A stretch of DNA of 64,000 nt, from contig CM059449.1 in the NCBI GenBank assembly GCA_030390025.1, forward strand, positions 35,898,001-35,962,000, given 5' to 3'. Position numbers and translations under genes: made by a program. The notes beneath the pieces were generated by a model that had not been told where the DNA came from, ran no database searches, and saw nothing but the letters and a program-made list of their open reading frames with translations. Position 1 is the first letter of the stretch; the number at the start of each line of letters is the position of its first letter. The stretch comes from Squalus acanthias. Its lineage: Eukaryota. Positions 1-57,390 of this stretch are shown here, one piece after another.

Positions 1-275
1 CGTTCTGGGCCTTGCACAAGGTAAGATTGTACTCCGAGCTACACCGCCGATCGTAATTTTTGGGCCAGTATTTTACTTCGAGGCAACTCAGGAAAATAAG
101 GATGTGCCGTGCATGGATAAATAGTTAGTCATCCTCAGGATTACCACGTCTAGGTGGCACAGAGAGTGATTGATTTGAGTGAAGGAAAAATCAGCATTAA
201 TTAGTACACTTTTTTTGTTCCAATTACGTGTGATGTCCATAATCGTGATTTATTTACCCACTCTCGCACTTGCAG

Positions 276-1165
276 CCAACTTGGTCAAAATTGTGATTCT
301 CTTCCGGGGAAAACGCGGCCACTCCATGTAAATCACTATTTACCTGGTGGCCATGGCAGTGGCCGATCTGCTGGTCCTGATATTTGGCGGGGTCCTGTAT
401 GAGATGAAAGCAATTTATTTCCCGGATTCATTCCTGGACTACACTCCGGTCTGCAGTCAGAATGTCTTCCTTATTTATGCTTCTATTGAATGTTCTGTCT
501 GATTAACTGTCGCTTTCACCTTTGATCGATTTGTCGCCATTTGTTGCCAAAAAATAAGAACTCAATATTGCACCGAAAAAACTGCGGCAGTGGTTGTAGC
601 AACGATATCGGGGCTGAGCATTTTTGAAAATTTCCCAATGTACTTTATTTTAGTACCTCGCGCAATAATTGACAATATACCGTAGTTCTGTGAACTGAAC
701 TCAAAACTCTATACTGTACATATATGGGTTATATTCTTATGGCTTGACATAGTTTAAATCCCTTTTATTCCTTTTCTTTTGTTTTTGATATTCAATGGTC
801 TGACCATCAGGCAATTTCTACTGAAAAGTAGAATCAGGAGGGATCTCCGCAGAATCGACAGTGACCCAGAAATGAACAACCGCAGGAAATCCATCGTTTT
901 ACTGCTGGCCATATCTGGCAGTTTTATCCTGTTATAGATGGTAAGTTTAATTCATTATATATCTGTACAAATTATGGATATTCAATACTTGCACACAGAC
1001 TGCAGTAATCCGTTCAACATTTTGGAACAAACTGGATATATGCTGCAGAATATGAGTCCTTGCACAAATACCATCATTTATGCAGTGTCCCAGACTAAAT
1101 TCAGAGTGGAGTTAAAGAATCTGATTCAATATCCCTTGTCTGTAATTACTAAGTTAGGGAAATAA
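276..1165 (+). pseudogene. GPR139/GPR142-like class A GPCR pseudogene, main coding exon (exon 1 would lie upstream of the window)
   Basis: Acceptor ttgcag|cc at 275/276. Translation ANLVKIVILFRGK..YLVAMAVADLLVL..LTVAFTFDRFVAICC..NRRKSIVLLLAISGSFIL..SPCTNTIIYAVSQTKFR is collinear with the copy at 49231-50142. Several in-frame stops (TAA ~328, TGA ~500, TAG ~682, TAA ~755, TAG ~934). Confidence 0.9.
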
Positions 1166-8224: not shown

Positions 8225-8330
8225 CTCTGTTTTTTCCTCCACATATAGATTAAAACTATAACGATAGCCAGCGACACCAGTACACACACGACAATCAGCC
8301 CCACATGCTTGACTTTCTCTACTTTTCCTT
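8225..8330 (-). CDS. MHC class I-like gene, connecting peptide/transmembrane exon
   Basis: Acceptor tttttcag| in phase 1; encodes EGKVEKVKHVGLIVVCVLVSLAIVIVLIYMWRKKQR (hydrophobic helix plus basic stop-transfer); donor ag|gtaagg. Confidence 0.8.
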
Positions 8331-11885: not shown

Positions 11886-12152
11886 CCCAGGAGACTGTTT
11901 TCCCACCCGGCAAGCTGCTGTGCTCAATATGACAGGAGTATTGTTTCCCATCATACGGATCAAATTCAAGGGTTGTCGTTAGTTGATACGTCCCATCGTG
12001 ATTGGGTAATAGCCCAGTAGATTTGGTCTCAGGGGCATGTTCTCCATTCTTCAACCAGGTCACGCTGATGGACTGTGGATAAAATCCAGTCACAATGCAG
12101 TGGAGAAACCAACGATCAGCAGCCCTGGCAATAACTGAGACCTCAGGGGAAA
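11886..12152 (-). CDS. MHC class I-like gene, alpha3 (Ig C1-set) exon
   Basis: 267 nt, phase 1-1, atgtag|..|gtaagg. Encodes VSPEVSV..LHCIVTGFYPQSISVTWLKNG..LLPNHDGTYQL..YSCHIEHSSL..VSW. Confidence 0.95.
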
Positions 12153-12380: not shown

Positions 12381-12656
12381 CTTGTCTGGTTAGTGAAGCA
12401 TTTCCAATTGAATAGTATCTCCTCCATAAATCCACACAGTAATTTTCTAATAAGCTCTTGAAATAAAGATTCATCTTTGTTTCCTTATCCCATTTCACTT
12501 TGAAGGTCTGAGCTATTGGATCATGTACGGTCCAAACCAATTTGTCTTTATCGAAACTAAATGAGTATCTTCCATCATAAGCGAGTTTCAAAACCCCTAC
12601 ACTAGGATTGGCATCATTCAGCTCACAGCCAAACAGTCCTTGAATGTAGTGAGTAC
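12381..12656 (-). CDS. MHC class I-like gene, alpha2 exon
   Basis: 276 nt, phase 1-1, ttctag|..|gtaagt. Encodes THYIQGLFGCEL..AYDGR..KVKWD..LENYCVDLWRRYY..LTRQ with C101/C164 equivalents. Confidence 0.95.
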
Positions 12657-14535: not shown

Positions 14536-15529
14536 TATCTCAACATTTGAAATGGGAGTTGCCGATGAAAAGTCAGCATGTTGCAATTGCACCCTCGCTC
14601 CAATGGTGGCGCTGTAATGCCTCAGTTTTTTGTTACCCAACACTTCAGCCTATACTTCTGGAAAACTCCCGTGTATAAACCAACTCTACTTCTCACCTTC
14701 ACAAATTTCCAGCAATGTTGTTACTTAACTATAAAATAACATGCCAGAATATTAGCCAATGCTGTCACAATACATGCCAGAAATGATATTAAATTGGGGA
14801 CTGCGTTATGTTTGCACAGCATAGGCTAACATTCGCTGTCCTCCAAGCTTGTTACAATGGACTTGACTCCATGAAAGTAATTTTGACTTTGGATGAGTGT
14901 GTAAAATGGGCGATATTGGATCGTCCGCCCATTTTGCACCTCGCCTGATTCTCATGTCCATAGAGGTCAACGGAAGGGAAAATTAGACAGGGAGTATATT
15001 GGGTAGTCAGTTCGATATCGCTCATTTTACACTATTGCCCAAATATAAAATTTACCCCTAATGAATAGAAAACTGCGGGCAGTGCATTATGCTTTTCTGA
15101 TAAGCAACCTGCGGGATATAAGATGGCATTGAAGCCTCAAACTTACACATCTACATTAAATATCAAATATGTGCTCACTAATATCACTGAGCAAATGCAA
15201 TGATATGAATAATAATCCTTCAATTTAATATTGCCAATATAATTCAATAAACACAATATTGCCAATATGATTCAATACATGTGTTATTTCCAATGTCATT
15301 CAATAAATCTATTACGAATATTATTCATTAAAAGTAATATGACCATGCATGGAGGGGTTAATTTTAAATTGTGGTCATAGTGTAAAGCGGAAAATATCGG
15401 GTCAGTGGCTTGTTATAAACCTCGCGCAATTGAAAGGGAATCCGAGCGAGGTGTAGAACGGGCGGTCGGTCCAATATTGGCCACTTTACTTATTTGCTGA
15501 AGAGTTAAAAATTACCCCATAAACATAAT

Positions 15530-16276
15530 GGGCCAGAAATTCGGCTCTTCGGCTTCCCGCGGGTGCAAGAATCGTGCGCGTACTTACATACCGCGCCTGC
15601 CGTTGTGCTTCGGGCCCACGTGGAATTCGGCTGCTGGGCCTCCTGCAGCTGCCGGCGTGCAGTGTTCGTGTATCCCAGGGGCGTAGTTTGTTCGAAGCGT
15701 CCCCTGGGATCACGTGGGCCATGGAGAGCCAATCGGAGCAGGGAATCTTCATTCATAGATTTGACAGGAAGACCTGTCAAATCTATGAATAGAGATCGGC
15801 CCCAAAACCTCACTAAAACTTCAAATAATTTTTAAAAAAGCATCACATTTTTAAAATAACTATATATTACATAAATTAACTACTTTAAACAAAAATTTAA
15901 ATTTTTGAAAAAATTAATTACACTTTTTAACTGTGCTAAAAATAAACTTACCTTTCTTTAAAGTATGTAAAAAAGATAAAGCTGTTGAATTTTTTTTAAA
16001 TTGTACTTAATTCACCACTTACCTTGATAAAAGCAGGCCTTGCACCTCCTTTTTCCCCACGCAGCTTCTCCGTACTAACCCTCATGGAGAAACCTGAAAA
16101 AAAACTGAAGTTCGAGGTCTAAGCACTGCCTCTCCAGCGCACGCGTTCGACCTCTGAACCCCTTCCTTCAGGGGAACGGAAGTTCCGGTTTCCAGCGCAT
16201 GTGCAGTGCATGCGCAAAACCGGCACTTTCGCTCGGTCTGTGGGTGAGTACCCGTGGAGACCCGAATTTCTGGCCC
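15530..16276 (-). mobile_element. ~750-bp MITE, copy B (reverse orientation, in the MHC alpha1-alpha2 intron)
   Basis: Perfect 15-bp TIRs gggccagaaattcgg / ccgaatttctggccc flanked by AAT/ATT. Confidence 0.85.
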
Positions 16277-16328
16277 ATTATGATTAGTTACATGTAAACC
16301 ACCAGCAAAACAATTAAATAAACATAAT

Positions 16329-17089
16329 GGCCCGAAAATTAGACCTAATACGTGAGAGTACGCATTGTGTACTCTCGCGTATTAGATCCCGAATTGCTGG
16401 TTTCCTGCATGCACTGCGCATGTGCGGGAAACCGGCACTTCGTGAATTGAAAAGGGGGCGGTTCCTAAGTGAACTGCGTGCGCGCTACAGGCTGTGCGCA
16501 CGCAGTGCACTTAGTTTTTTTTCAGCTTTGAATGCGCAGGTAAGTGGTGAAGATTTTACACACATAGAAAGCAGGCGTAGGACCCCCTTTTAACAAGGTA
16601 AGTAGTTAATTAAGTGTTATTTTAATTTTTTTTCAACAGGTTTATCTTTTTTAGAGACTTTAAAGAAAGGTAAGTTTATTTTTATAACTTCTAAAAAGAT
16701 TTTAAATGTTTTCAAAAATTTAATTTTTTGTTTAAAGTGGTTAATTTATTTAACTATACTTATTTTATTAATGTGATGGCTTTTTTTAATTTAATTGAGG
16801 TTTAGCTGTTCTTTTGGGGGTGTGGAGTATTCATAGCTTTGACAGGTCTTCCTGTCAAAACTATGAATGAAAGATGGTGTGCTGCCATTGGCTCTAACTG
16901 AATCACGTGATCCCAGAGCTCGCAAGAACTAATTGCGTCTCTGGGTCACGCAAGCACTGCACGGTTCCAACAGAGAGAGCCTTTGAAACTAAAGTTCGTG
17001 TGGGCCCGGAGCAAAAAGGTAGGCGCGGAGTGCGATATCGCGGGGAATCCTTACCCCCGCGGGAACCATCCATGTTTAATTTCTGGGCC
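16329..17089 (+). mobile_element. ~760-bp MITE, copy C
   Basis: ggcccgaaaatt..aatttctgggcc termini, TSD AAT/AAT, same internal hairpins as copy A. Confidence 0.85.
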
Positions 17090-18269: not shown

Positions 18270-18529
18270 TTGATGTTTGGTTGTTCTGCTGCAACCATCT
18301 ATCAACCTGTCCGTGATGAGTCCGTGGAAACCAGCTTGAGTGCTTGTGTATCCGTCCCAGTAACTCTTGTCAAATGCTTCCGCCATCCATTGCTGTCTTG
18401 GAACAGTTATCTTCATATTTTTGTCGTAATAGCTAATCTCACAGCCATCCAATCGTCCCAGGAAACTATACTCCGGCAGATCAGCAATCCCATGGTTCAG
18501 GGTGTAGTAATATAGCAGGGAGTGAGACT
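18270..18529 (-). CDS. MHC class I-like gene, alpha1 exon (260 nt; apparent 1-nt deletion near 18312)
   Basis: Acceptor atcctag|ag tct cac; ESHSLLYYYT..LPEYSFLGRLDGCEISYYD..PRQQWM..SYWD. The 3' end reads QVDRWLQQNNQTS (N86 sequon, phase-1 donor a|gtgagt) only in the shifted frame. Confidence 0.9.
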
Positions 18530-20004
18530 CTAGGATATAATACAAAACAACATCATTGGCATATCAAATATCAGAAATGTCCGTTTGCAAAACAACTTCG
18601 GAAAAATAATTTATTCCGAAAAATGAGAGATCACTGGATATTTTGCCATCGCTCCCGTATTAAACCATTGCAGAGAAGACAAAATGAGCCTTAATATTTA
18701 ATGTTATCCATTTACAAGAATATTCCCATTTTCCAAATAAATGAAAAATGTGATGGTTCGAATAAATTACATCAGCTCATCTCATTTGTAAATCGTAACT
18801 TTAAGATTTTAGTCCCACGTCTGACCTGGGGATTCTTTGGTGAATTAGTGAGGAAGTGCATCCAGAATTATGGTACTAAGCCGTGCAGAATCCACCCCTG
18901 GTGCGTGCGCAGTGATCTACTCCCAGCCCGCTGCTTGTAGCGACATTAAAATTGGCCTCAGATTTACTGAGCGAAAGAGGGGGAAAAGCAGCTTGAATAT
19001 ATGCAAATTGCGGTTAAAGGAGGTTATCAGGGCCCTCAGCAATATTTCCCTCTCTGCCCACATTGTTACCGCTAGTTCCTGATCCTGCCGACACACTGGA
19101 ACCACTCGGGAGGCAGATATTACAGGGATCCTCAGTTGGTCTGAAATAAAATGCTGGAATATTTAGGAGACATTTTACTTCTATTTTGTTGTAGGATTTC
19201 ACTACTTAATCTATTTAAATTTCTTGTACTGGCTGCTGAATATTTTGAACTGTTAATGGACTTCTCGTAATTTCACTCTGGAATGTAGTGAGTGTCAGTT
19301 GTGATTGGAGGAGAGCCATGGGAAGTCTGAAGGGAAGGATTAGTAGAGCAGCGGCTAACTTCAGGCGGTGCGAGGCTGTGCAGATAGTAAGAGAGACGTG
19401 AAGCCGAGTCTGACCTTGTCAGTCCTGGTGAGGTCATTACGTTTCCTCCTGCAATGCAGCTAGATCCTTGGGAAAATGGAATATAAATTTGTCTTGGGTG
19501 GCAGCGCGGAATGGGCGACAGCGAATCAGCAGCCAGCTTTGCCCGCGGCCTGAATTTCTACTCGATTGAAGTCTTTGGAAAAGAAAATTGGACGATAGCC
19601 AAAACAGGCTGTCGATCTCCATCAGCCGCTGTCGGTTACCATGCACTTTATACCCAATGTTGCTGCAATTAACTTGCTCATCCACCTCTCGCCATTACAG
19701 CTGACTAATTTGACGGGCCTATCATTACCTATTAGAGGAGTCGAGGTCCTCAGTACCAGTGCTAACTTGCTCTTCAAGCGCCTCCACCGTTGCCCAGAGA
19801 ATCGGAGGACACCTGACCATGTCATGAAAGCTGCTGCTCCAGTAAGTCGCTCTCCATTAACTACCCTTGAAAAGTGCATCGTCCCTTTAAGGGACTGCAG
19901 GCAGCCTTTAAAGCAAAAGGTCTTGGCGCTCATTTCATGTAAATGAAGCCGGATCATGAAATTATACTGTCCCCACCAACTTAATCTATCAGACAGGCGG
20001 AGCA

Positions 20005-20220
20005 TAGGTTTACCAACCCTCCAGAACTATCCCGGAGTCTCCAGGAATTAAAAATTAATCTCCTGGACACCGCTGCAAGAAACTAGAGAGAAAGATAACA
20101 ACAACAGCACAACAATCACAATTACAATAATATTAGAGCTGGGGACAGAAGGCGGGTTGACTGGGCTGGAGGTCATGTGATGAAAGCTCCTGGAATGAGT
20201 CCAACCAACGTTGCCAACAC
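20005..20220. mobile_element. Possible short non-autonomous DNA transposon (TAGGGTTGCCAAC-type end)
   Basis: Left end taggtttaccaaccctccag; degenerate gttgccaac near the right end. Confidence 0.4.
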
Positions 20221-20389
20221 GTCGGCCTGAATCACCGCACAAATTCCCATCTATGATTGAGGGACATTACTTCAGTCCTGCAGTAACTCTCTGGCGTGTT
20301 TCTTAATCGTCCAACGCCACACGAGGCCCTATCGTCACCTCACCATTTCAACCAACACAGGAGCTCCCCCAGGGCATCCGCAAGGTCCG

Positions 20390-20605
20390 AGGCAGTTAGT
20401 GTAACCCGGACTAAACACGGGGGCAGTCAGTGTAACCCGGACTAAACAAGAGGGCAGTCAGTGTAACCCGGACTAAACATCGGGGCAGTCATTGTATCCC
20501 GGACGAAACACGGGGCAGTCAGTGTAACCCGGACTAATTACGGAACAGGCAGTATAACCCGGACTAAACACGGGGGCAGTCGGTGTATCCCGGACTAAAC
20601 CCGGG
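20390..20605. repeat. Minisatellite, ~30-bp unit ggcagtcagtgtaacccggactaaacacgg, ~7 copies
   Basis: Direct tandem units visible. Confidence 0.95.
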
Positions 20606-20679
20606 TCAAATACTTTGTTCATGATGGCGGTCTAGTGCAATAATGAATATAGCCGCACAACTCCTGTCATTTGACTTAC

Positions 20680-20731
20680 CAGGAACCACCCTTTGAAAAA
20701 AGTAAAGGCTCACTAAAGCAAAGAGGAACAT
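20680..20731 (-). CDS. MHC class I-like gene, proximal signal-peptide exon (L2)
   Basis: 52 nt, ATG..MFLFALVSLYFFQRVVP+g|gtaagt; the phase-1 donor fits the alpha1 acceptor. Confidence 0.7.
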
Positions 20732-22941
20732 GTTTCAGGGAGTCACTCAGTGAAAACCCTGTACAGCGAGACGGGAAAGTTATGTCGTTGCCCGAACCTC
20801 TCCCACATTATTCTACTTATCTCGTTTAGTGAAACTCATTCTATCCAATGGGAATGAACTCACCTCCCGTCACTGGGGAGGGAATCTCTGGCTCTATTCC
20901 CAACATTAGGAACTGCGGGCAGAATTGGATTAGAAAATAACACACTGGTCAATGGCAAAGACTTGAAACTGGAGGAAGACTGGGACACAAATTGAAGGCA
21001 TCGGCGATAATATTACCCACTGAACCTGATCGTTAGCGATTATAGAGCTGGCTGTTAAAAGCAGCAGCAATCTCCAATCCTGTGTTTGCACCTTATCAGA
21101 AGAGGTGCAAACCTCACTGGCAAATACAGCCTCGCCTTGTTAAGGTCAATGAAAGGCCAATCACAGGCTGGTCACTTTCAGTGTTTCTGCTGGGTGATAG
21201 AAAGTTTACAAGCTACACAATCTGAAAATTCAACACTCCTCCGTTTCAGTGGCGGTGTAAATATATCTGCTTTGAACAGATTGAGGCTCTGCTAAAATAG
21301 TGGAAAGAGGAATTTCAGACCAAGATACAAATACACTTGTTCATTGAGCCTTATTACTCGCTGTACCGCCATACATGTTCTGCCTAAAATTACTGTTGGC
21401 AATATTACTGAGACATGTTACTGTCCATTGCTGTAACACAGGTGATATCACACTTGTTTTAAGCAGGCTACACCATTAAAATAACAGGCAAAGTAATGTT
21501 ACACCAATATGGTAAGCGTTTCACCTCTAATATCACCAACATTAATTTAGGAACAGGAGGAGGCCATTCATCCCCTCGAGACTTTTACTGCCATTCAATT
21601 AGGTCATGGCTGATCTGTATTTTAACTCCATCCAATCATGGAATAATATAGCACAGAAGGAGGCCATTCGGCCCATTGTGCCTGTGTCGGCTCTTTGGTA
21701 TAACGAGCCAATCAGTCCCACTCACCTGTTCTTTCTCCATAGCCCTGTATTTTTGTTTTCCCTTTAATTATTTGTCCAATTCCATTTTCAAAGTTTCTGT
21801 TAAATCGGCTTCCACCTGATGTCCTGAGGTGGTGAAAGGCGCTGTAGAAAGGCAAGTCTTTCTTTCTCTCTTTCTTCCACAGCGAGCTGTAACAGGTGCC
21901 GAAAGCTGCCTCTGATGTTCACCCCGAACAGCTCCAGGCTGTGAGCAGCAGGCACTGATCAATTCCAACAGTCAGTGGGCTCGATCTTGACTTTGTGCGA
22001 TAGTAAAACGGGCGATAGCCAGTCGGCAGCTCCTTTTACAGCTCTCCAGATTGTTACTGCCATTGAACTCAATAGAAGGGGGGAAACGGAGAGAAAGATG
22101 GAAAACTGGCGGCCGACTCGCTCTCGCCCTCGTTACACCATCGCACAGAGTCAACATGAGCCCGAATGGAACCGCACATGGTGGGAATCCGCTACAAACT
22201 GCAAATGTTGCAAATATGCAGCAGGTCAGTGTGAAAGAGACAGAGAGGTTAACTCTGGGAGCTCAATCTTCACCCGAACCTGCACGGAACGCCTCAAAGC
22301 TTCATTCTAAAGCGAGTCGGAAAGTGTAAAAGAGGTTCCCGGGTCGCTGGAACCCGTTTCCCCCTGTGATAAAAGTGAACCCCTCCCTCTGTATTTTTAA
22401 TGATTTGTCCGATTTATTGGGAGTTTTAAAAGGTTTTCCAAGTTCCCAGGAGGTAGAAAGAAGCTTTTAAAATGCAGCTTCCCGCCGGCTGCAGTTACAC
22501 TGAAACAGGTGTGAACCCGAACCGACTGAGCCGCTTTCCTGCAGGAGTCTCGCCGCTGGGCTCTGGGTCACTCAGGGGGTCAGGTCGGGACTGGGCTCGC
22601 AGTTATACTGACACTTCCGTACCCGCAAGCCGCTTAGCGGGAACAAACTGTCCGTCCCCCTCCTGCTTATCAGAGCGAACATACAAGCTGTCACAGTAAC
22701 TGAGCGGTAATGTCAGGCTGTCCGGACAGTAATGGACATCATCTAATCCAAGCAGAGGGAGAAGCGAGCCTGAGAAGCAAGATGGAGATGCCAATCCCGC
22801 TTCATCGCTTCACTTCCGCACACACTGACTAGTTTCCCTGTGTGAAACACCTGATGTGACCGACAGGCCTGCCGGTTACAGTCTAAGATCAGAGGGTGAG
22901 CCTGGAGACATTCAAGGATGCATCCCGAACCGGCTACTCAC

Positions 22942-22993
22942 CAGACAGGGCCGCTTGTAGGCGGAAGAAACTCAGTACAAGTGACAGAAACAT
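22942..22993 (-). CDS. MHC class I-like gene, distal signal-peptide exon (L1)
   Basis: 52 nt, ggcATG..MFLSLVLSFFRLQAALS+g|gtgagt, phase 1, in a CpG-richer region. Confidence 0.75.
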
Positions 22994-23104
22994 GCCGTCC
23001 CTTCCGTCCGCCAACCTGCTGTCTCTCCCAGTGACAGAACAAGATTGAGCGATTTGAATGGAACCGAGCCCAGCTTCACTCACAAGTGGGCAGTGCGGGA
23101 GCTC

Positions 23105-23185
23105 ACCATCCAATCGCAGTAAAGATCCGTCACTGATTGTCCAGGGCTGTCCCTGAACCGTGAGCAGCACCGAAACTGACTCACA
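23105..23185 (-). promoter_or_regulatory. Putative MHC-type promoter module: AP-1/IRF half-site, X1-X2-like box, Y box (inverted CCAAT)
   Basis: Minus strand reads tgagtcagtttcgg ... ccctggacaatcagtgacgg ... gcgattgg, 110-190 bp upstream of the L1 ATG, in the ISRE-X-Y order of class I promoters. Confidence 0.5.
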
Positions 23186-25274
23186 GTCCAAGGCCTGCGC
23201 CATGTGGCCATGGACAATACACGGCGGGCGGTTAGAAATATGTTTAAAACAGCGCTCCGGGGGTTAAGTTGTATAATTGATAACAATTAATATATTGTCT
23301 GAATCTAGCGGGAAACGCCCTCGTTGCCGCAGAGAGTCGAGTGATAAACTATTCAGCTTGTTGAACCTCAATACAGTGAACCACCGAAGTTCATATCACG
23401 GCAATTAAACCCTTCCTGACCCCGTGGGGCTATTTTAACCTAACCCGCCCGGCCGAACAACTGCCGGCATCGGGGGCAACACTGGTTTTACCCCGCGCCC
23501 AATTTTATTCTCCATTGAAATCAGTGGAGAGTAATATTGTGCGGGAGCGGGAAAGCAGCGTTCCACCCGCCCCGTGGGATCCCGCCCAGCCACTAAGGTT
23601 CAAATTGCCCCAAACTGCGGCTGTCATTGCAGCAGCGGCGTGTGGGCTAATATTTCATTTTTTTTTCATTCCGGCTTACTTTACACTTGAACTGACATTA
23701 CTTTGTGCTTCTGAGCTGTCAAACCAAACTGTAAAATATAAAGTCAAAGTACTGAGTAAAAATAAGGACCGAATGTCCTGACTTTCAAATGGGAACTGAA
23801 TTATTCTAGGAAAAACACCCAATGCTCCACCCATCTCAATTATTACAATTCCTAAATTACCCTAAATCTTCTTATGTAACTATGAGTTATATAAAACCAA
23901 AGGTTTCTATCAGTAAGGAGAGAAGGCAGGAATTATAGATAGATGGAGATGAATGATGTCTGGGCGCCTTGGTCCAGTTTTCCCCAAGCCTCGAACCCAC
24001 CTCACTGGAATAATACACTCGGTGCTAGATGTTCAATAGAAGGGAATTCAGGCGGGTTCTGCAAATGGTGTGGGAGCCTCTCCATCTGGTTTTACTCTGT
24101 GCTCCGCCAGGCGAGGCTTAATATCCAGGCGGTAAAGATGGGAATCTGCCCCATGGTCATCACCTTGTGAGCAATGTCAACAGCGACATCAGAAGCACTG
24201 GTTTCTTGGTTGCATTTTCACGGTTTGGAAACAGAACTCTAACCTTGATGAGTGTTTAGTGAAACAAGTTGCAACAGTTTGTTGTGAATACGCACAATAT
24301 TCCATCAAGGTGGGCAATTAAAAAATGTTGCTTTGTTGGTGTTTCCCGTCTCCAACAAAGAGTCGATGTGTCCCTCTGATCTGTGTTGACGTTGTTATTT
24401 TATCCAAGGCTGCGACCTGGTGGGATGTGGGATTAGAATTAGCCTCCCTGTTATGGGCTGGCAGATCCCAGGTACACATTGTTGTTCGACATTGAGTGAC
24501 CTCCCGCTAGAAGATCCTTGTGCACCTATGTTGGATCGGTCTGTGCTGCGCTGCACTGCCCCTCACAGTGGAATATCCTGCTTACTCTCATTCTATGGGC
24601 TCGCACCTGAAAGGTGATCTCATCAGAGAAATGGGAGAGGTCGCAGGCACCCGCAGAACTCTGTCTCAGCATCAGGTACCGCCTCCTCTACAGGAGGGCG
24701 AGGTCACAGAATGAGAGGGAAATTCAGAGAGAAAGTGTAAAAACCAAACCAGGGAAAGACGTCTGATTACATTTCTCCCAGCAATTGTTTAAGTCTTTTT
24801 AAACTAGACTGTCCCACTAACTTGTCTAACTTTCCCATGTTTCCACTTTCCCAAAGACTCTCATGTTCCCGTGGGTGAAATTGGCATTTTATCCATTTAC
24901 TAGTCTCTACATTAAGACATCAGCATTTTACAATATTATTTTTAAAATGCGAGCACTGGGTTTTGTGACACCTGCGGGCCCCTAGAATGATTCACGCCTG
25001 GAGTCTCTTCCTCTTGTAGTTTCACTTCCTCTGAAAGAATTAGCATTGCATTTGAAGAATTATTCAATTCAAGATTCTGTAGAACTTCCAAGTTCCCTGA
25101 GAGCACAACAATCGTTTCATGATCACTTTAAACTGTAAACGTATTTCTTTATTTTTCTGTTATTGTATGTTCGTACAGAACCAGATTTGATATCAGAGAG
25201 AATCCAATTGCTCCTCCGATACCTACTGCTCTACCGTGACTCCACCAAGCTTCTGCATTGTTGTTTGAGCCGAT

Positions 25275-26860
25275 TACATGGAATTACACGTTAGGATCTT
25301 CATCACAGGAACAGGCCATTCGCCTAACTGGTCTATCTGTTTGTTTATACTCCACAGGGGTGTTATCCTAATCTAATTACTGCTTCACACTCTGTCCCTA
25401 TATACCCCTATATTCCCTCCTCCCTCAGGTATGTATCAAGCCCAGTCTTAAATATAGCAATGCTCTCTGCTTCAACCATTCCACGTGGCAGCGAGTTCCA
25501 CATCTCAGCACTCTGTGTGTAAGGAAATGCCTCCGAAATTCTTTACTTAATCTGTAAGTGTCTACAAGAAACCAGCCCCAGCCCAGCCCAATCTTTCCTC
25601 ATAGTTGTGTCCTCCCAACTCTGATAACATCTTGCAAATATTTTCTGTACGTTCCCCAGTGCTTCAATATCCTTTTTGTAGCATGGAGTCCAGAACTGCC
25701 CAAAATGCTCCAAATCTGATCTAACCAAGACTCTGTATCAATGTAACATTACATAGAAACATAGAAACATAGAAAATAGGTGCAGGAGTAGACCATTCGG
25801 TCCTTCGAGTCTGCACCGCCATTTAATGCGTTCATGGCTGAACATGCTACCTCAGTACCCCATTCCTGCTTTCTCGCCATACCCCTTGATCCCCCTAGTT
25901 GTGAGTATTATATCTAATTCCCTTTTGAATATATTTAGCGAACTGGCCTCAACAACCTTCTGTGGTAGAGAATTCCACAGATTCACCACTCTCTGGGTGA
26001 AGAAGTTCCTCCTCATCTCAGTCTTAAATGGCTTTCCCTTTATCCTTAGACTGTGACCCCTGGTTTTAGTTTCCCTAACATTACCTCCCAGTGTTTTGTT
26101 ATATTCTGCTCGAAATGAACCCCAGTACTTTGTTTGCAATTTTTATGGTCGTATCACCTTCCGTTGCTACTTCGAAGGATTTGTGCATCTGTGTTTCCAG
26201 ATCTGATTGCTCTTCTACCACATTTACTTTCTTACCTTCCAAGGAATAATTACACTCCTTATTCCTCCTACCAAAAAGAACCACCTCACTATTCGCCATA
26301 TTGAATTTAATTTGTCATTTATCTGCCCACTCTGCGAGCCTGTTTGTGTCTTCTTGTATTTTAGTGCAGTCTCCACATTATTGGCTGCACACCCCAATTG
26401 GTATCGTGTGCAAATTTCCACACCAGGAGGGAAACCCCCCCAGGAAATGTCTAATGGATGGCTGATCACCAAATTCAAAGTCATCCCCCATACATCGACA
26501 CTCTGAGTCCAAATCATTGATGTTTATGGTGGACCACAGTGGTCCCAGCACAGGTCCCTGCGGGACAACACTTCCCACTTGCCGTCAGTCTGGGAAACTT
26601 CCCTTATCACCCACCCCCATGTTGTGTATTCTAACCATCTTTCAATTCAGTCTGATACCTGACCTCTGACTCCACAGGCTCTGACCCTTGCCATGAGCTT
26701 CTTATCGAGCAGCTTATGGAAGGCCTTTTGAATGTCCATGTAGATCACACCTACTGCATTGCCCTTGTGTATTCTTTCCATTAATTCTTCAACTTATTCA
26801 ATAAGGTTGGTTAAACGTGGCCTTCCTTTTACAAACCCATGCTGACAATTTTATATTATA
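25275..26860 (-). mobile_element. Decayed CR1 LINE with a nested younger CR1 3' fragment (~25750-26080)
   Basis: VPQGPVLGP, VRSDLEHFGQFW, MRRNFFTQRVVNLWN; (catagaaa)n tail at 25752-25775. Confidence 0.85.
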
Positions 26861-27309
26861 TTCTCCAGGGGTAAATTGATCTCGGGCCCAGCGCAAAACA
26901 GGCGATGGTGAAGTGACTGGAAAACATTTAATTTAAGTGACATAAAGTGGGATGTCCAAAAATGAGTAAATTATATATTGCAACCTATATACTTCTAGCG
27001 TTTGATAATCAAGTCAAATGTGTTTTATTATAATTCTTCTACTGAATTCAAATCTGGCGACTGGGAAACAGGTGTCTGACACAAACTCACCCCGTCCCTG
27101 CCGGGTTAGGCTAAAATTACCACCAGATGATGTAATTCATCATCTGGAAGCAATATATGTCAGAAGGACGCAGAGAATTATGAACACAGATGTGTACACT
27201 AAGGCTTCGTCTGATATTCCATCCTGCTCATCAACTTCGTGATATTTAATTTGTTTCCACTATCTATAGCAACAGTGACACTAAATATTATGTCAGTGAT
27301 TCTGTGGGG

Positions 27310-27730
27310 AGACTAGAGAAGCTGGGATTGTTCTCCTTCGAGCGGAGATGGTTAAGCTGTAATAGACATGATGAAAATCATGAAGGGATTGGACAGAGTA
27401 AGTAAGGAGCAACTATTTCCACTGAAAGAAGGGTCATGTAATGAAAGGACTCAGATTTATGGTAGTTGGCAAAGGAACCACAGTTGAGATGAGGAGAGTT
27501 TATTTTACGCAGTGAGTTGCTGTAATCTGGAATGCACTGCATGAAAGGGTGGTGGAAGCAGATTCAATTATAACTTTCAAACGGGAAATGTATAAATATT
27601 TGAAGGGAAGAGAATTGCAGGTTTTGGGGAAAAAGCAGGGGAGTGCGACTAATTCAATAGCTCTTTCAAAGAGCCGGCACAGGCTAGATTGGCCGAATGG
27701 CCTCCTCCTATGCTGTAAAGTTCCATAATT
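27310..27730 (+). mobile_element. CR1 3' fragment
   Basis: ctagagaagctgggattgttctcc...ggccgaatggcctcct. Confidence 0.8.
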
Positions 27731-28986
27731 GTTCAGGTTATGACTATCGCTGTGCTATTGATTATGTACATTTTAGATAATCTCAGATTATATCTGATGG
27801 TGTCCCAGTGGGGTGTCACAGTGCTTACCTGACATAACTTTAATTTCAAGACTTCACTACAAAACTTATCCAATCCGTTCTTTATGTTCCGCGTAAATGA
27901 AGCTTTTTCCTGTTTGTGTATGAAGCAACATGTAATGGACATCTAATTCACCCCCTCAGTATCAGTCCTATAGATGCAGCAAAGAAGTATCATCAGGAAC
28001 CCCTAATGGATTCTTTCATTCACATTCGATGGATGTGGGCCAGATGTTCCTGTCTCTGCACCTGGGAGCTGTTGAATTGTCTGTTGCAGTCAATACTTGA
28101 AAATCTCCGGTGGAGGAGAGCGCTTTCCCCAAACGGAGCTTTCTGATTGTCCATTCATTCCTTTATATGGAGGGAAGATTGGGCAGACCTCTGCATAGTG
28201 TGTTCGCTTCCCCGCCCAATGTTGAACTGAGATGTGATTTCAGATTCCATAGTTATTATAACTAATAATGTCTAGAGATGGAGAAAAAACTAAGAGTGTA
28301 GACACTGTAGATTAGATCTAGTCGGTTTTGGTTAGGCTTGAGACAGACACGAAGAATTATCAAGGCACAAGTATCATTCATTAAATGATTGTTAAATGTC
28401 TCTAAACTACAACTATTCATCAAATATGCAAAGAAACGGCTACTAAATCAGTAAACCAGTAATATATATAACTGCAAGCGTATTATAAGATGTTATGATT
28501 TGTTCTTCCTATGTGACCGACTCAGTCAAGCCAGCATTTATTGTCCATTCGTTCTTGCCTTGACTGCATTAAGAGCAGCTATGTTGGGTGGGATAGCATC
28601 ACTTGTAGGCCAGACCAGATAGAGAGTGTCAGGTCTCCTTCTCTGTAAGACATTAGTGAAACAGTGCGGTTTTTATGATAATCCGCCAGCTTCCGTGATC
28701 ATTTGTCTTGGTGGTAGCCCACAAATTATCAGACTTACTGCTTTCAATATTGGAATTTGGACTCAAAACCTTTCCGATGCTCGTCCAGTACTACCTTCAC
28801 TAGGCTACTGTATTATCCCCCTCACTCGTTCTGGAACATTGCTAATGTATTTACAAAATACTGCTTTCATAGTTCTCTGGTACAGCTGAATGAATAGGCA
28901 ACAGTAAATAATATAATTCAACTGGGATTGCGTGCTGTGCGTTTCACCAGGTGGATCCAGGGGGATTTTTTTACAAATCAACTTAC

Positions 28987-29246
28987 TTGAACTGAGGTTC
29001 ATCAGTTGTAACGTTCTGGAAACTTGCCCTTTCTGACTCCGTGGAAACTGGCTAGAGTAATTGTGAGTTCCTCACAGTAACTGGTGTCACAGAAAGTCAC
29101 CATCCACTGATTCCTTGGAACCGTTATGCACATATTGCTGTCACAATAGTCTATCTCACAGCCATCCACAATCTCCATTTTACTATAATCCGGAAGATAA
29201 GAACTCCCATGGTTCACTGTGTAGTGATGCATCAAAGAGTGAGAAT
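28987..29246 (-). pseudogene. Orphan paralogous MHC class I-like alpha1 exon (260 nt; same apparent 1-nt deletion)
   Basis: ttctag|at tct cac; DSHSLMHHYT..LPDYS..DGCEIDYCD..VPRNQWM..SFHG. Shifted-frame end QVSRTLQLMNLSS+a|gtaagt. No alpha2/alpha3 exon found before the next gene. Confidence 0.85.
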
Positions 29247-33215: not shown

Positions 33216-34525
33216 TTACATACGAACATAACAAATAGCAGCAGGAGTAGGCCATTTGGCCCTTTGAGCCTGCTCCACCATTCAATAAGATCATGGCTGA
33301 ACTTTTACCTCATCCCCACTTTCCTGCACTATCCCCGTATCCCTTGATTCCCTTAATATTCAAAAATAAATCGATCTCTGTCTTGAATATACTCAACGAC
33401 AGATCCTCAACAGCCCTCTGGAGTAGAGAATTCCAAAGATTCACCACCCTCTGAGTGAAGAAATATCTCCTCAACTCAATCCTAAATGGCCAAACCCTTA
33501 TTCCGAGACTGTGACACCTTGGTCTAGACTCTCCAGCCAGGGGAAACATCTACACTGGCAAACCCTGTAAGAATGTTGTATGTTTCAATGAGATCACCTC
33601 TCATTCTTCTAAACTCCAGAGAATATAGACCTAGTCTACTCAATCTCTCCTCATAGGATAATCCCCCCCATCCCAGGAACAAATCTGGTGAACCTTCGTT
33701 GTACTCCCTCTATGGCAAGTATATCCTTCCTTAGCTAAGGAGTCCAAAACTGTACACAATACTCCAGGTGTGGTCTCACCAGGGCCCTATATAACTGCAG
33801 TAAGACATCTTTATTCTTATAAACAAATCCTTTTGTAATAAAGGCCAACGTACCATTTGCTTTCCTACTTTTTTGCTGTACCTACATGCTAACTTTCAGT
33901 GATTCGTGTACAAGGACACCCAGGTCCCTCTGAACCCCACCATTTTGTAATCTCTCAACATTTAAAAAATACTCTGCTTTTCTATTTTTCCTACCGAAGT
34001 GGATAACTTCACATTTCTCCACAGTATATTCCATTTGTCGTGTTCTTGCCCACACACTTAGACTGTCTATATTCCCTTGAAACTTCCTTGCATCCTCCCC
34101 ACAACTTACATTCCCACCCAGCTTTGCATCACCAGCAAACTTGGATATATTACATATAGTCCCCTCATCCAAATCATTGATGTAGATTGTGAATGCTGAG
34201 GCCCGAGCACTGATCCTTGCGGTAACCCACTAGTTACAGCGTGCCAACCCGAAAATGATCCGTTTGTTCCTACTCTCTGTTTTCTGTCCGTTAACCAATC
34301 CTCAATCCATGCTAATATATTACCCCCATTCCCATGAGCCTTAATTTTGTTTAACACCCTCTTGTGTGGCACCATAGCGAAAGTCTTCTGAAAATCCAAA
34401 TACACCCCATCCACTGTTTCCATCTTATCTATTCAGCTATTTACAGCGTCAAAAAACTCTAACAGATTTGTCAAACACGATTTCCCTTTCATAAATCCGT
34501 GTTGATTCTGCCCAATCCCATTAGT

Positions 34526-35286
34526 GGCCCAAAACTTCGGCTGAATACGGGAGAGTACGAACTGTGTACTCTCGCGTATTCGGTCCCGAAGTGCCGGCTT
34601 CCTGCATGCACTGCGCATGGGCGGGAAACCGGCACTTCCGGTATTGCTAAGGGGGCGGTTCCTAAGTGAACCGCGTGCGCACTACAGGCTGTGCGCACGC
34701 AGCACACTTAGGTTTTTTTTCAGGTTTCAACGCGAGGGTAAGTATTGAAGATTTTACACATAAAAAAGGAGGCGTAAGACCCCCTTTTAACAAGGTAAGT
34801 AGTTAATTAAGTATTATTTTAAAAAATTTTCAACAGGTTTATCTTTTTTAGAGACTTTAAAGAAAGGTAAGTTTATTTTTATAACTTTTAAAAAGAATTA
34901 AAAAAAATTCAAAAATTTTAATTTTTGTTTAAAGTGGTTAATTTATTTAACTATAGTTATTTTATTAATGTGATGGTTTTTTTAAATTTATTTGAGGTTT
35001 AGCTGTTCTTTTGGGGGCAATTTGTATTCATTGTTTTGACAGTTCTCCTGTCAAAACTATGAATGAAAGATGGTGTGCTGCCATTGGCTCTCCATGGCCC
35101 ACGTGATCCCAGAGGTCGCATCGAACTAACTGCGCCTCTGGGACATGCACACACTGCGCGTCGGCACCAGGGAGAGGCCCAGGACCAGACGTTCGTGTGG
35201 GCCCGAAACATAAAGGCAGGCACGGTAGGTAGGATCGCGCGCGATCCTTACCCCCGCGGCAAGCCTCCGAGTCAAATTTCTGGGCC
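34526..35286 (+). mobile_element. ~760-bp MITE, copy D, inserted in the CR1 RT region
   Basis: CR1 sequence cccaatcccattagt resumes as aatattttctaagtgccctg; TSD AGT/AAT. Confidence 0.88.
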
Positions 35287-36344
35287 AATATTTTCTAAGT
35301 GCCCTGTTTCCACTTCCTTAATAATAGATTCTAGCATTTCCCCCACTCCTGATATCAGGCTAACTGGTTGTACTTCCCCGTTTTCTCTCTCCCTCCTCTT
35401 TTAAAAAGTGGGATTACATTTGTTACCTACCAATCTGCGGGAACCGTTCTAGAATCTATGGAGTTTTGGAAAATGACAACCAATGCATCCAGTATCTCTA
35501 TATCCAACTCTTTCAAAACCCTAGGATGTAGGCCATCAGTTCCAGGGGATTTATTGGCCTTCAGTCCCTTTAATTTGTCCAATTATATTTTATTACTAAT
35601 ACTAATTTCTTCCAGCTCCTCATTCTCGCTAGACCCTTGGTTCTCCACATATTTCCGGGAAGTTTTTTGCGTCTTCTTCCATGAAGACTGTTTCATTCCT
35701 CAGCCATTTCCTTATTCTCCATTATAATTCTCCTGTCTCATCCTGTAACAGAGTCACATTTACTTTCGCTAATCTTTTCCTTTCTTCATACCTATAGAAG
35801 CTTTTACAATCTGTCTTTATGTCTCTCGCTAGTTTAATCTCATATTTGATTTTCCCTTTCTTTATCTATTTGAAATACGCTCTTTCCCGAATCCTCCCAC
35901 CCACACCTTCATTAGTTTAATGCCCTGTCTGCTGCTCTAGTTATTCCGTTCGGCAGGACACTGGTGCAAGCCCGGTTTAAGTGGAGACCGTCCCAAAGGA
36001 ACGGTTCCCTCTTTCCCCAGTACCGGTGTCAGTGCCCCATGAACTGCAACCCCTTCCTCCCACATAACTCTTTGAGCCAAGCATTTAAACCTCTAATCTG
36101 TTTGTCCCTATGCCAATGTGCGCGTGGCTCAGGTAATAATCCAGAAATGATTAACTTTGAGGTTCTGCTTTTTAATATTGATCCAAGGTCCTTAAAATCC
36201 CTCAGCAGAAGCTCATTCCTTATTCTACCTATGTCGTTGTTTACTACATGGACCACGACAACTGGATCCTCCCCCTCGCACTCCAAATTCTTCCCCAGCC
36301 GCGAGGAGATATCTTTAACCATGGCACCGGGCAGGCAACACAAT

Positions 36345-47482: not shown

Positions 47483-50142
47483 ATGGATCGACCAATCCTT
47501 GCCCAGATTGAAGCGGTTTACTACCCGATTCTCGCAGTGTTTGGTGTTCCTGGTAAGTCATTACCATCAGTTGTCAATGTCACTCGGGGTTTACCTGTAT
47601 CACTGCTCTTGTTGATTCTGTGAGCTGTTTGTTTTCACGGGCTTGTTTGTACTGAGATCAATTAAATGTCACCATTTCTAGTGAAACATTAACGCAATAA
47701 CGTCACAGAAATTCCCAGGGAAGCTACAATTGTCTCTGCAGTTTCAGCACCAACAATTTTAACAACTTTCACCACAGTCTCGCAGTACTGGGGGTGGAAT
47801 AGGTCTTCGGCAGCAGCTCGAGACGGACTCACAGAGAATCCGAACCTGTTTCACTCCGCGCACAATGTTTTTCCCATTGAAATAAAAAGTAAAGTATTTC
47901 GGGCACGGTCTGAATGTGCTGCCAATTCACTATCGCCAGTTTTGCGCTACCGTCCGATACAAATTTCACCCACAGAGTCGGAACAGAAGAAACTGGCAGG
48001 GAGAGAGAGAGAGAGAGAAATAGAGAGCGACAGAGTCAGAAATATAAAAATAGTTTAAAGAAAAGAGAGAGAAAAGGAAAGTCAGAGAGACAGAGGGTAA
48101 ACTGAACTCTGCTCGCCACGTGTAAAACCGGGGCTCGCGAGCTGACAGCTTGTTTGAAAACTCGCTGGATTATTTTTCCATTTACTTCAAAGGACTTTGG
48201 TTTTGCTCCCGGACTAAGAATCCAGAGACATGGACCAATCTTCTAAAAATAGTGAGTTCAAATCCACCATGGCTGATCGAGAATGTGTGAATTCGGTTAA
48301 AAAATACCTGGAAATAAAAATAAATGGAGCATTCATAAATTGACCAGGTATCATAAAGAGCCAACTGTTTCACTAATATTCTTTAGAGAAGGAACCTGCC
48401 GTCCTTACCCGTCTGGCCTATACATGACTCCAGTCCGTCACCCACTGCCCTCTGAAGTGGTCTAGCAAGTCACTGAGGGCAACTAGGGATGGGCAATAAA
48501 TGCCAGCGATGCCCACAGCCCGGGAATCAATTATAGTATACACAGTAAAGGTAACTGTGCTTGACCCATTGATTTACTGTTTTCTCCCTATTGCCACGTC
48601 TCGCGGTCTGCCAACTTATGCCTGAACCTCGGGCTTCCTTTCTTTACATAATTGCTTGTTTCTTCTTAGTCCACTATTCCTTCACCTTGGCCAAGATGGA
48701 TAACGGGTTGAGATGCCTTCTGAGACTCTCCAAAGAATCTCAGAATCCTTGACTCCGATTCTGACACCCCCTTTTAATGTTCCCATCCCTTGTATTTGAA
48801 TTCTACACCTTTTCCTTCTCCCAAACCCGTCCCAATTTGCAGCTCAAGCTGTGCTAGTGAGTAGACCTGGGTGTTAAGAGCGCACTTCAGGTTAATACTG
48901 TACATTAAACCCTCCCTCATAGCCATTCTGGACTAAAATACCCTGATAGAAAAATCCCAGCTAAAGAGAAACAGAGACAGAGAGAGATGATTAGAGCGTC
49001 ACAGAAACAAACTGAGACATAGAGAGAGAGGCAGGAGAAAGGCAGAGTGTGAGTAAAACTGAGGGATGGTCAGAATCAGTGACAGATATAGAAATACAGA
49101 GAGAGTCAGAGAGAGAGAGCATGAGTTGAGCAGTAGAAAATATGTGATGTAATTTGATAAACTGTCATTATCTGCCGGCCATTTTGTTTTGACTATGATG
49201 ATTAATTTATTTTTTTCTGTTTTATTGCAGCGAATTTATTCACAATTGTGATTCTCTCCCGTGGAAAGTGCGGTCTCGCCAAATGTATCACTCGATACCT
49301 GGTGGCCATGGCAGCAGCAGATCTACTGGTCCTGATATTTGATGTAATACTGTATCAGATTAAAGAGATTTATTTCTCAAATTCATTCCTGGACTATACT
49401 CTCATCTGCTGTCTTAATCTCGGCCTGGCATTTTCTGCCACTGATTGTTCTGTCTGGTTAACCGTCGCCTTCACCTTTGATCGATTCATCGCCATTTCTT
49501 ACCCGAAGCTGAGAGTCAAATATTGCACCGAAAAAAACTGCGACTGTGATTATAACAACGGTGTGTGGTTTGAGCCTTTTACAAAACATTCCATTTTACT
49601 TTGTAAGTGAAGCTGGTGAAATAATTGATAACATACAATTGTTCTGTGCTGTAAAATCTACCTTCTACACCTTTCCCATTTGGATGGCTTATCTCTGGCT
49701 CCAAATTATTTTAACCCCACTCGCTCCATTCGTGTTCATTGTACTGCTCAATGCTCTGACCATCAGGTTCATTGTACAGGCCAGTCGAGTCAGAAGGAGA
49801 CTCCGAGGGAGCAAGAAGGGTGAGAGTCACAATGATCCAGAGATGGAGAACCGAAGGAAATCCGTCATCTTATTGCTCGCAATTTCAGGCAGTTTTATCC
49901 TGCTATGGGTGGTAAATTTCCTCTATGAAATATGTATACAAATTACAGATACTCATTTCTTCCGAACAGATTACGCAGATCCTTTTACCGTCATGGAACA
50001 CAGTGGATATATGCTCCAGCGTTTGAGTTCCTGCACCAACACGGTTATTTATGCAGTGGCCCAGACTAAATTCAGAGATGCGTTAAAGAATGTGATTAAA
50101 TATCCATTTGCTCAGATGATTAAGTTAATAAAATTAAATTAA
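47483..50142 (+). CDS. GPR139/GPR142-like class A GPCR, two exons (47483-47552; 49231-50142), ~326 aa if one extra A at 49531-49537 is removed
   Basis: Exon 1 MDRPILAQIEAVYYPILAVFGVP+g|gtaagt; acceptor tttattgcag|cg; ANL (TM1), MAAADL (TM2), DRF (TM3), SSCTNTVIY (TM7). A7 here versus A6 in the paralog at ~576-581. Confidence 0.9.
48190..48525 (+). mobile_element. SINE-like element sharing the 3' tail of the CR1/L2-group LINE
   Basis: gagttcaaatcc B-box-like motif; ends gggcaactagggatgggcaataaatgccagcg as at 36890-36930. Confidence 0.6.
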
Positions 50143-52343: not shown

Positions 52344-53340
52344 GCTCTTTTTGGTTGGACAAATCAAAATTTACTGTAAATCAATTAAAACTTTAAATGA
52401 AACTTAATAAATCAAATCAAAATTTGGAAGTCCGGGGTGACGATGCACTCCAGCATGTTTTCCCCTGAGCAGAGGGAGCTCTTAAGTTGAAGGCACACCT
52501 CTCCCTTTATTTGAATTAATTGGGAGAGGGGCCTTCTCCCCTCTGCTCAATAGGTACTTAATTAAAATAGATTGAGGTGCCTCTTAGAGAGAGAGGCAGA
52601 GAGAGACAAGAGACAAAGAGAGAGAGAGGGGGGGTGGGAAGGAGGGAAGCCGCAAGGGCAGGGTCGCCACTCAGGATAGTGGGTGGGTGGGTGTTGGCAG
52701 GGGGGTGCACTCTCCGATGTAATAAAAGTCTTTGGTGGTGGTCTTCTGGTGGGGGGAGAAGATGTCTTCACCTGGGATAGCTGGAGATGCCCAGGCTCAG
52801 TCCTGCACCAGGTCTTAACGATGCCCAATAAGATTAAATTAATTGGGGACTTCACCTAGGCAGCTCCAGCTGTCCCAGGTCAGGCAATGGGAAAGGGGTG
52901 TTTAATATGGTGTGTGCGGCCTAGCTTTTACAGAAGCCACACACACACACACACACCCCTTGGATGTTCCGGCCTTCTTCTTTTTCTTCTTTCCTCCCCC
53001 CACCTACAAAACAAAGTCTCTGGGAGAGTGCCCCAGAATCACACCCACCTGTAGCTGTTCTTTCCTTCCTTCCTCCTTCCAAACAGATGATGTTTTGTTG
53101 TTTTCTCCCCTCTCTCCCTCTCCTAAAATGGAGGCCGATTGAGGAGGCAGTGTGGAAAGGCCTCTCCTCTGGTGTTTGATGGCCTTGGCCTTCCTTTCTT
53201 CTCCCTCTCCTCTCCTGTCCTCTCTCTCCAGGCACCTCAGTTGTGGGGTTGTTGGTTGTTGGTGGTGGCCTGCTGTCTGGTCTCCTTCTCCTTCTCCTCT
53301 TCCTGGTCACAGAGACCACCACTCTGCTGCTGCTCCTCAG
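52344..53340 (-). mobile_element. Internally deleted non-autonomous Tx1 copy (~890-bp 5' UTR fused to the last ~110 bp)
   Basis: 52457-53397 is nearly identical to ~59628-60563; 52344-52454 is nearly identical to 53398-53507. Confidence 0.9.
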
Positions 53341-53465
53341 TCAGCAGCTCCGAAAGCTTGTGATTTCAAATAAAGCTGTTAGACGATACCTGGTGTTGCT
53401 CTTTTTGGTTGAACAAATCAAAATTTACTGTAAATCAATTAAAACTTTAAATGAAACTTAATAAA

Positions 53466-57365: not shown

Positions 57366-57390
57366 CTCAGAAGCATAGTGCAACCTCTAC

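Follow-up and report, generated by a model that had tools for sequence, protein, structure and literature searches.

Two alpha1 exons of the MHC class I type in the window, a stretch of 64,000 nucleotides from Squalus acanthias, are each one nucleotide short. Comparison of their sequences with those of their paralogs suggests, at a probability of about 0.85, that the two shortfalls arose from two different one-base losses, which occurred independently while an expanded shark UGA cluster underwent birth-and-death evolution. One of the exons (exon A) belongs to a UGA gene and carries a change that is private to this copy. The other (exon B) is likely a fragment pseudogene that was amplified together with a block made up of B, a leader, and the gene.

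The window lies on a chromosome-scale contig (C26) of a 3.7-Gb genome. Translation in all six frames, tblastn, and a profile built from 9 homologs located one class I gene in it, on the minus strand. The MHC proteins encoded in the window were nearest to shark and ray MHC proteins. The best PDB match was 9CH4 both for alpha1 (123.6 bits, compared with 44 for the next match) and for alpha2 (146 bits, compared with 60), and the aligned stretches of 9CH4 agree with the Gcirratum_UGA rows in the available part of the supplement of PMC10751288. When alpha1 and alpha2 were compared with reference UGA and with other class I lineages, both lay far nearer to UGA. The exon plan of class I genes (leader, alpha1, alpha2, alpha3 of the C1 type, and TM, connected by phase-1 junctions) was found, with alpha1 one base short (Table 1). 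Judged by these similarities, the gene is a member of the shark UGA lineage of non-classical MHC class I genes. UGA is characterized in the available text of PMC12562908 as a single- or low-copy, CD1-like class Ib gene that binds lipid, the last property being attributed there to a personal communication. A second leader-type exon, L2, is likely an alternative first exon of the UGA gene. L2 was scored intact in 23 of 28 copies, and it is similar to the leader of P0005.

Table 1. Positions of the UGA exons, the lesion context, and the orphan alpha1 exon in the window
Feature	Position	Strand	Description
Connecting peptide / transmembrane (TM) exon	8225..8330	-	106 nt, intact
alpha3 (Ig C1) exon	11886..12152	-	267 nt, intact
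alpha2 exon	12381..12656	-	276 nt, intact; shifted frame stops 39 nt in
Exon A, alpha1 of the UGA gene	18270..18529	-	260 nt; private -1 and substitution near 18311-18314
Lesion context	18308..18325	-	Perfect 7-nt direct repeat, CACGGAC twice, 11 nt apart; this copy only
L2, second leader-type exon	20680..20731	-	MFLFALVSLYFFQRVVP, phase-1 donor GTAAGT
L1, leader exon of the UGA gene	22942..22993	-	52 nt, intact; MFLSLVLSFFRLQAALS, phase-1 donor
Exon B, orphan UGA-derived alpha1 fragment (likely)	28987..29246	-	260 nt; -1 at approximately exon nt 214 in all 28 copies

DNA searches of the genome, in which 40 of 50 candidates and 40 of 49, respectively, were scored, and a protein search detected 21 full-length and two partial A-type alpha1 exons and 28 B-type exons; the protein search recovered all 28 of the B-type and all 21 of the full-length A-type copies. 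Sixteen A-type and 17 B-type matches were located on C26 alone. There were 18 distinct sequences among the A-type and 17 among the B-type copies, and some of the copies on small contigs may be alternative haplotypes. The partial A exons L022 and L027 were left out of the counts, as were the type-crossing matches L023-L030 and L059-L060; L022 spans the lesion site and has the base. Each UGA exon was present in 18 to 23 copies, and the single- or low-copy state given in the available text of PMC12562908 does not hold in this genome. The high copy number is read here as a local expansion. Pairwise omega was 0.36 (95% CI, 0.21 to 0.66) among the A exons, 0.31 for alpha2, and 0.23 for alpha3, and the variants in A were distributed over the codon positions as 18/22/30. 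Frameshifts were rare in the paralogous coding exons (0 of 19 for alpha2, 0 of 18 for alpha3, and 1 of 27 for the leader), and dead copies (L079/L142) are known in the family. A literature search found no paper on a UGA expansion, and no primary UGA paper surfaced either.

The sequence-only reading had described A and B as divergent exons with the same one-nucleotide shortfall, and its description of the exons was confirmed. Both are 260 nt and bounded by AG and GT on the minus strand, and in both one frame stays open through the 5' part, and the 3' end that resembles MHC (QVDRWLQQNNQTS / QVSRTLQLMNLSS) is found in the shifted frame. When X was placed at the break, both exons aligned to the 86-residue alpha1, which is in frame in all 11 shark and ray homologs, and the Asn of the sequon fell in a column that does not vary among these 11 homologs. 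The accompanying statements, that neither exon bears other damage and that the remaining exons are intact, were only partly correct. No further stop was present in either window exon, but B keeps 22 of the 28 invariant residues, compared with 28 of 28 in A. The leader, alpha2, alpha3, and TM exons are indeed intact, but they form a single set, which is that of A, and B has none.

The shortfall itself was found not to be the same in the two exons. The gaps represent different events in neighbouring codons, at approximately nt 217 in A and nt 214 in B, so that the sites are separated by about 3 nt, or one codon, and their sequence contexts differ. Among the 21 full-length A-type exons, 20 are 261 nt, and the 260-nt form occurs in the window copy only. 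The -1 is present in all 28 B-type exons (27 of 260 nt and one of 242 nt), and the gap is identical in all of them. The letters on both sides of the gap in A are A-type, the lesion string of A has a single occurrence in the genome, and window A groups with an intact 261-nt sister copy. These lengths, gap codons, A-type letters, unique lesion string, and intact sister together indicate that there were two events, and that neither shared inheritance nor transfer between the exons was involved. The puzzle of why an old lesion common to both exons had not been followed by more damage therefore dissolves, because the lesion is not shared. The observations that had been named as contrary to the sequence-only reading were largely obtained, namely full-length alpha1 in paralogs and homologs and neutral evolution of B.

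The equal 260-nt length of A and B is likely a coincidence. The chance that one of the 21 A copies loses a base within 9 nt of the B lesion was approximately 0.05, based on the rate of private 1-nt losses in the window (6 in 23,542 nt, the A lesion counted in); the pattern was chosen post hoc from a large scan, in which such a value is unusual but ordinary. A 1-nt indel anywhere in the 21 A exons would have a probability of approximately 0.88 if the exons were unselected. With regard to the proposal of independent deletions at a hotspot, independence was supported and a hotspot was not shown. The close spacing of the losses, for which no hotspot mechanism was shown, is the observation that stands against independence.

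The change in A consists of one lost base and one substitution and is not a plain shortening of a run. The 7-nt direct repeat at this site was created by the change and is absent from the intact copies. If A were spliced as is, translation would stop at codon 117, which is 39 nt into alpha2; skipping of alpha1 would preserve the frame. An mRNA with such a premature stop would likely be degraded by nonsense-mediated decay. Contigs from four of four DNA runs had the extra base at 18310-18313 at full depth and were without the linked alleles of this copy (e.g., at 18343); contigs drop rare variants, and the four-run result neither confirms nor refutes the lesion in A. Among the sequencing runs listed in a search, none was recorded as RNA and none contained half of the query words, a result that bears on expression in neither direction.

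Exon B is located 6 kb upstream of the UGA leader L1. No second alpha2, alpha3, or TM was detected in the window by protein profile searches, no remnants of alpha2 or alpha3 were detected by DNA profiles in the window or in eight stretches taken from other units, and a scan of 111 candidate donors revealed nothing leader-like upstream of B. An alpha2-like match at 27092-27127 (E = 0.59) was weak and unsupported by the profile searches, and it was rejected. The next mapped element downstream of B was a leader in 25 of 28 copies, at a distance of 4 to 11 kb, and was never alpha2; in the remaining three copies, there was no mapped element within 40 kb. A protein search with the B exon (70 aa, longer proteins only) returned two candidates, neither of which was significant; this is weak evidence, and no weight was placed on it in either direction.

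The pairwise omega among B copies was 1.28 (95% CI, 0.78 to 2.31), and at a kappa of 2.5 it was 1.65 (CI, 1.03 to 2.90), slightly above neutral; these values are derived from pairwise comparisons only, and the pairs are not independent counts of events. The comparison of dN/dS on the two sides of the shift, which had been proposed from the sequence, gave no selection on either side in B by pairwise omega. The variants in B were evenly spread over the codon positions (35/35/28). B had 100 variant alleles per 260 nt, compared with 102 to 124 in adjacent bins for two of three references and 86 to 102 for the third. A distance of 0.28 for the upstream flank of B was set aside because the flanks were non-homologous. 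Invariant residues were kept at 98% in A copies and 71% in B copies, and the invariant Trp, Ala, and Phe are gone in 17 of 17 distinct B copies. Extra lesions in the B copies were a stop (4 of 28), loss of the acceptor (2 of 28), loss of the donor (1 of 28), and an 18-nt deletion (1 of 28), with shifted-frame stops in B left out of this count. From the missing exons, the omega values, the flank-like density of substitutions, the lost residues, and the lesions, which include the disabling -1, it appears that B is a fragment pseudogene that multiplied along with the duplication block.

One indel event was counted in B, compared with 4 to 26 in well-covered flanking bins (Poisson P, 0.04 to 0.001), and one stop event, compared with approximately 3.8 expected (Poisson P, 0.11). 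Because the non-coding bins beside A also drop to 1 to 2 indels, the deficit in B was rated as mild. The few indels and stops in B, together with an in-phase GC donor, are left unexplained by the fragment reading.

The adjacency of the loss sites in two exons that lie 10.7 kb apart in the same orientation would be accounted for if gene conversion had carried the -1 from B into A or if both exons had inherited it from a common ancestor. Gene conversion had been listed among the alternatives in the sequence-only reading. However, A has gained no B-type letters at its gap, no donor-specific tract was found, the exons are only 71% identical, and window A nests beside an intact sister, all of which make transfer or common descent very improbable. 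Programmed recoding, by which a ribosomal frameshift or transcriptional slippage would restore both exons, agrees with the MHC-like 3' ends and the sequon in the shifted frame, but this likeness is equally expected from a young lesion in A and from modest neutral drift in B. The X_XXY_YYZ slippery heptamer was absent in 8 of 8 exons tested, the base is simply present in 20 of 21 A paralogs, and B is orphaned and neutral. In addition, a family-wide shift flanked by purifying selection on both sides, as in a programmed -1 frameshift, was not observed. Recoding is therefore hardly credible and falls away as an explanation.

A consensus error in the assembly, which had also been put forward for both exons, is implausible for B, the gap being present in 28 of 28 copies on eight contigs. 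For A it is a serious contender, and we set the odds of a real loss against an error at about six to four. In the case of an error, this gene copy would be intact and the shortfall of B would still be real, which is compatible with the main reading. The lesion in A is private and touches a G run, the rest of the A gene is intact, including all of the invariant residues, and none of the contigs of the four DNA runs has the loss. Moreover, 11 private indels were found in 23,542 nt of the window in comparison with four sister units, nine of them of 1 nt and several in homopolymers, and a neighbouring GPCR (49.2-50.1 kb) carries a private frameshift, with A7 in place of A6, that is shared by 0 of 10 paralogs readable at the site. 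On the other hand, a loss with a substitution is not a simple shortening of a run, dead copies exist in the family, the sister units have similar private indel counts (6 to 14 each), and the coding exons of the paralogs are seldom frameshifted. The last two observations suggest that most of the private indels are real and have been filtered by selection. It is also conceivable, at a small probability, that B was rescued after its frameshift and now accompanies nearly every UGA copy, where it would either supply a shorter, alternative alpha1 or act in regulation from a position upstream of the UGA promoter. A cryptic GC donor (AGG|GCAAGT) is present in phase after nt 219 in 18 of 28 B copies and would give a 219-nt in-frame exon; the acceptor AG is retained in 26 of 28 copies, indels and stops are few, and a leader follows most B copies. 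However, the GC donor is degraded in 10 of 28 copies and is preceded by an in-frame stop in 4 of 28, the amino acids of B are under no purifying selection, its substitution density is that of the flanks, the structural Trp, Ala, and Phe are gone, and no leader is located upstream of B in the window.

Under the reading of two independent losses, B would be what is left of an older UGA paralog, which diverged and was then deprived of one base and of the rest of its exons; it would subsequently have been carried along at each duplication of the B-leader-gene block. B was probably functional along much of its long branch, because there is no stop and one indel there and the omega between A and B is 0.50 to 0.71. 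If the loss in A is real, this copy would be a recent null allele or a young pseudogene, its mRNA would be subject to nonsense-mediated decay, and the intact paralogs would buffer the loss. The loss could perhaps have stemmed from slippage onto the 7-nt repeat upstream.

As found, the locus represents ordinary MHC birth-and-death evolution, in which a copy that is broken or mis-assembled lies next to a fragment pseudogene. In this genome UGA, which has been described as single- or low-copy, is represented by approximately 20 copies, which are mostly intact and evolve under purifying selection. This expansion and the two candidate leader exons are side results useful to shark immunologists, and the neutral B fragment would be a ready marker for the order of the block duplications. 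If B were still used, a CD1-like, lipid-presenting gene would have expanded to about 20 copies that come with a choice of two leaders and an accessory exon of their own, and the splicing in of B would be an unusual way for a frameshifted MHC exon to be rescued.

The change in A is weakly similar to the short template-switch complex mutations described in the available text of PMC5453318, in which an indel and an adjacent substitution likewise perfect a nearby repeat. Unlike those cases, only a 7-nt direct repeat is involved here, and matches shorter than 12-13 bp carry a caveat in that work. Exon B is comparable to primate MHC-U, which consists of exon 3 only, and to the MHC-W and MHC-V fragments, which, according to the available text of PMC12674619, are likewise isolated class I exons in repeated blocks beside functional genes. 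In contrast to these primate fragments, B corresponds to alpha1 of shark UGA and not to primate exon 3, and it is present in 28 copies.

In the region of approximately 32.7 to 38.4 Mb of C26, the contig that carries the window, at least 16 alpha1 copies of the non-classical MHC class I lineage UGA were found in both orientations; UGA is an expanded family on this contig. The copy number of UGA is given as single- or low-copy in PMC12562908. Genome-wide, alpha2 was clean in 18 of 19 UGA copies and alpha3 in 17 of 18. One copy, composed of the exon matches L079, L142, and L089, is fully dead, and alpha3 was reduced to its last 75 nt in three further units. The more distant alpha1 exons on C26 and on a second contig, C3663, together with an alpha3 cluster also located on C3663, represent other class Ib lineages.

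Features in the window (window-relative coordinates) and elsewhere in the genome (contig named)
Feature	Location	Strand	Remarks
Dead UGA copy (L079, L142, L089)	C26, 36.28-36.29 Mb		Stops in alpha2 and alpha3; donor lost; first leader without ATG
More distant class I alpha1 exon	G000:C26:30699752-30699958		42% identity to the alpha1 fragment query (exon B)
More distant class I alpha1 exons	C3663		34-38% identity to the same query
Second leader-type exon	20680-20731	-	Between first leader and alpha1
Rhodopsin-family GPCR, single exon	~49200-50139	+	Frameshifted; A7 run near 49532
Second GPCR, same family	~230-1162	+	Several in-frame stops
Non-LTR retroelement, near-intact	52344-60564	-	Open frames of 485 aa and 1306 aa
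Long imperfect inverted-repeat element, MITE-like	15522-17065; 34522-35294; also 1970-2723

The frameshift of the first GPCR gene arises from its A7 run. Its paralogs have A6 or an interrupted run at this site, and 10 of 11 retain open frames of 311-356 codons. The A7 indel is private, being either an error or a young lesion. The second GPCR gene is a pseudogene. A 943-nt direct repeat (52456-53398 and 59628-60564; 98.9% identity) flanks the retroelement.

The first UGA leader lacked an ATG in 11 of 27 copies, and the second leader-type exon had an intact score in 23 of 28. It is likely that UGA uses two alternative first exons. The leader of P0005, a sevengill shark isoform, resembles the second leader-type exon.
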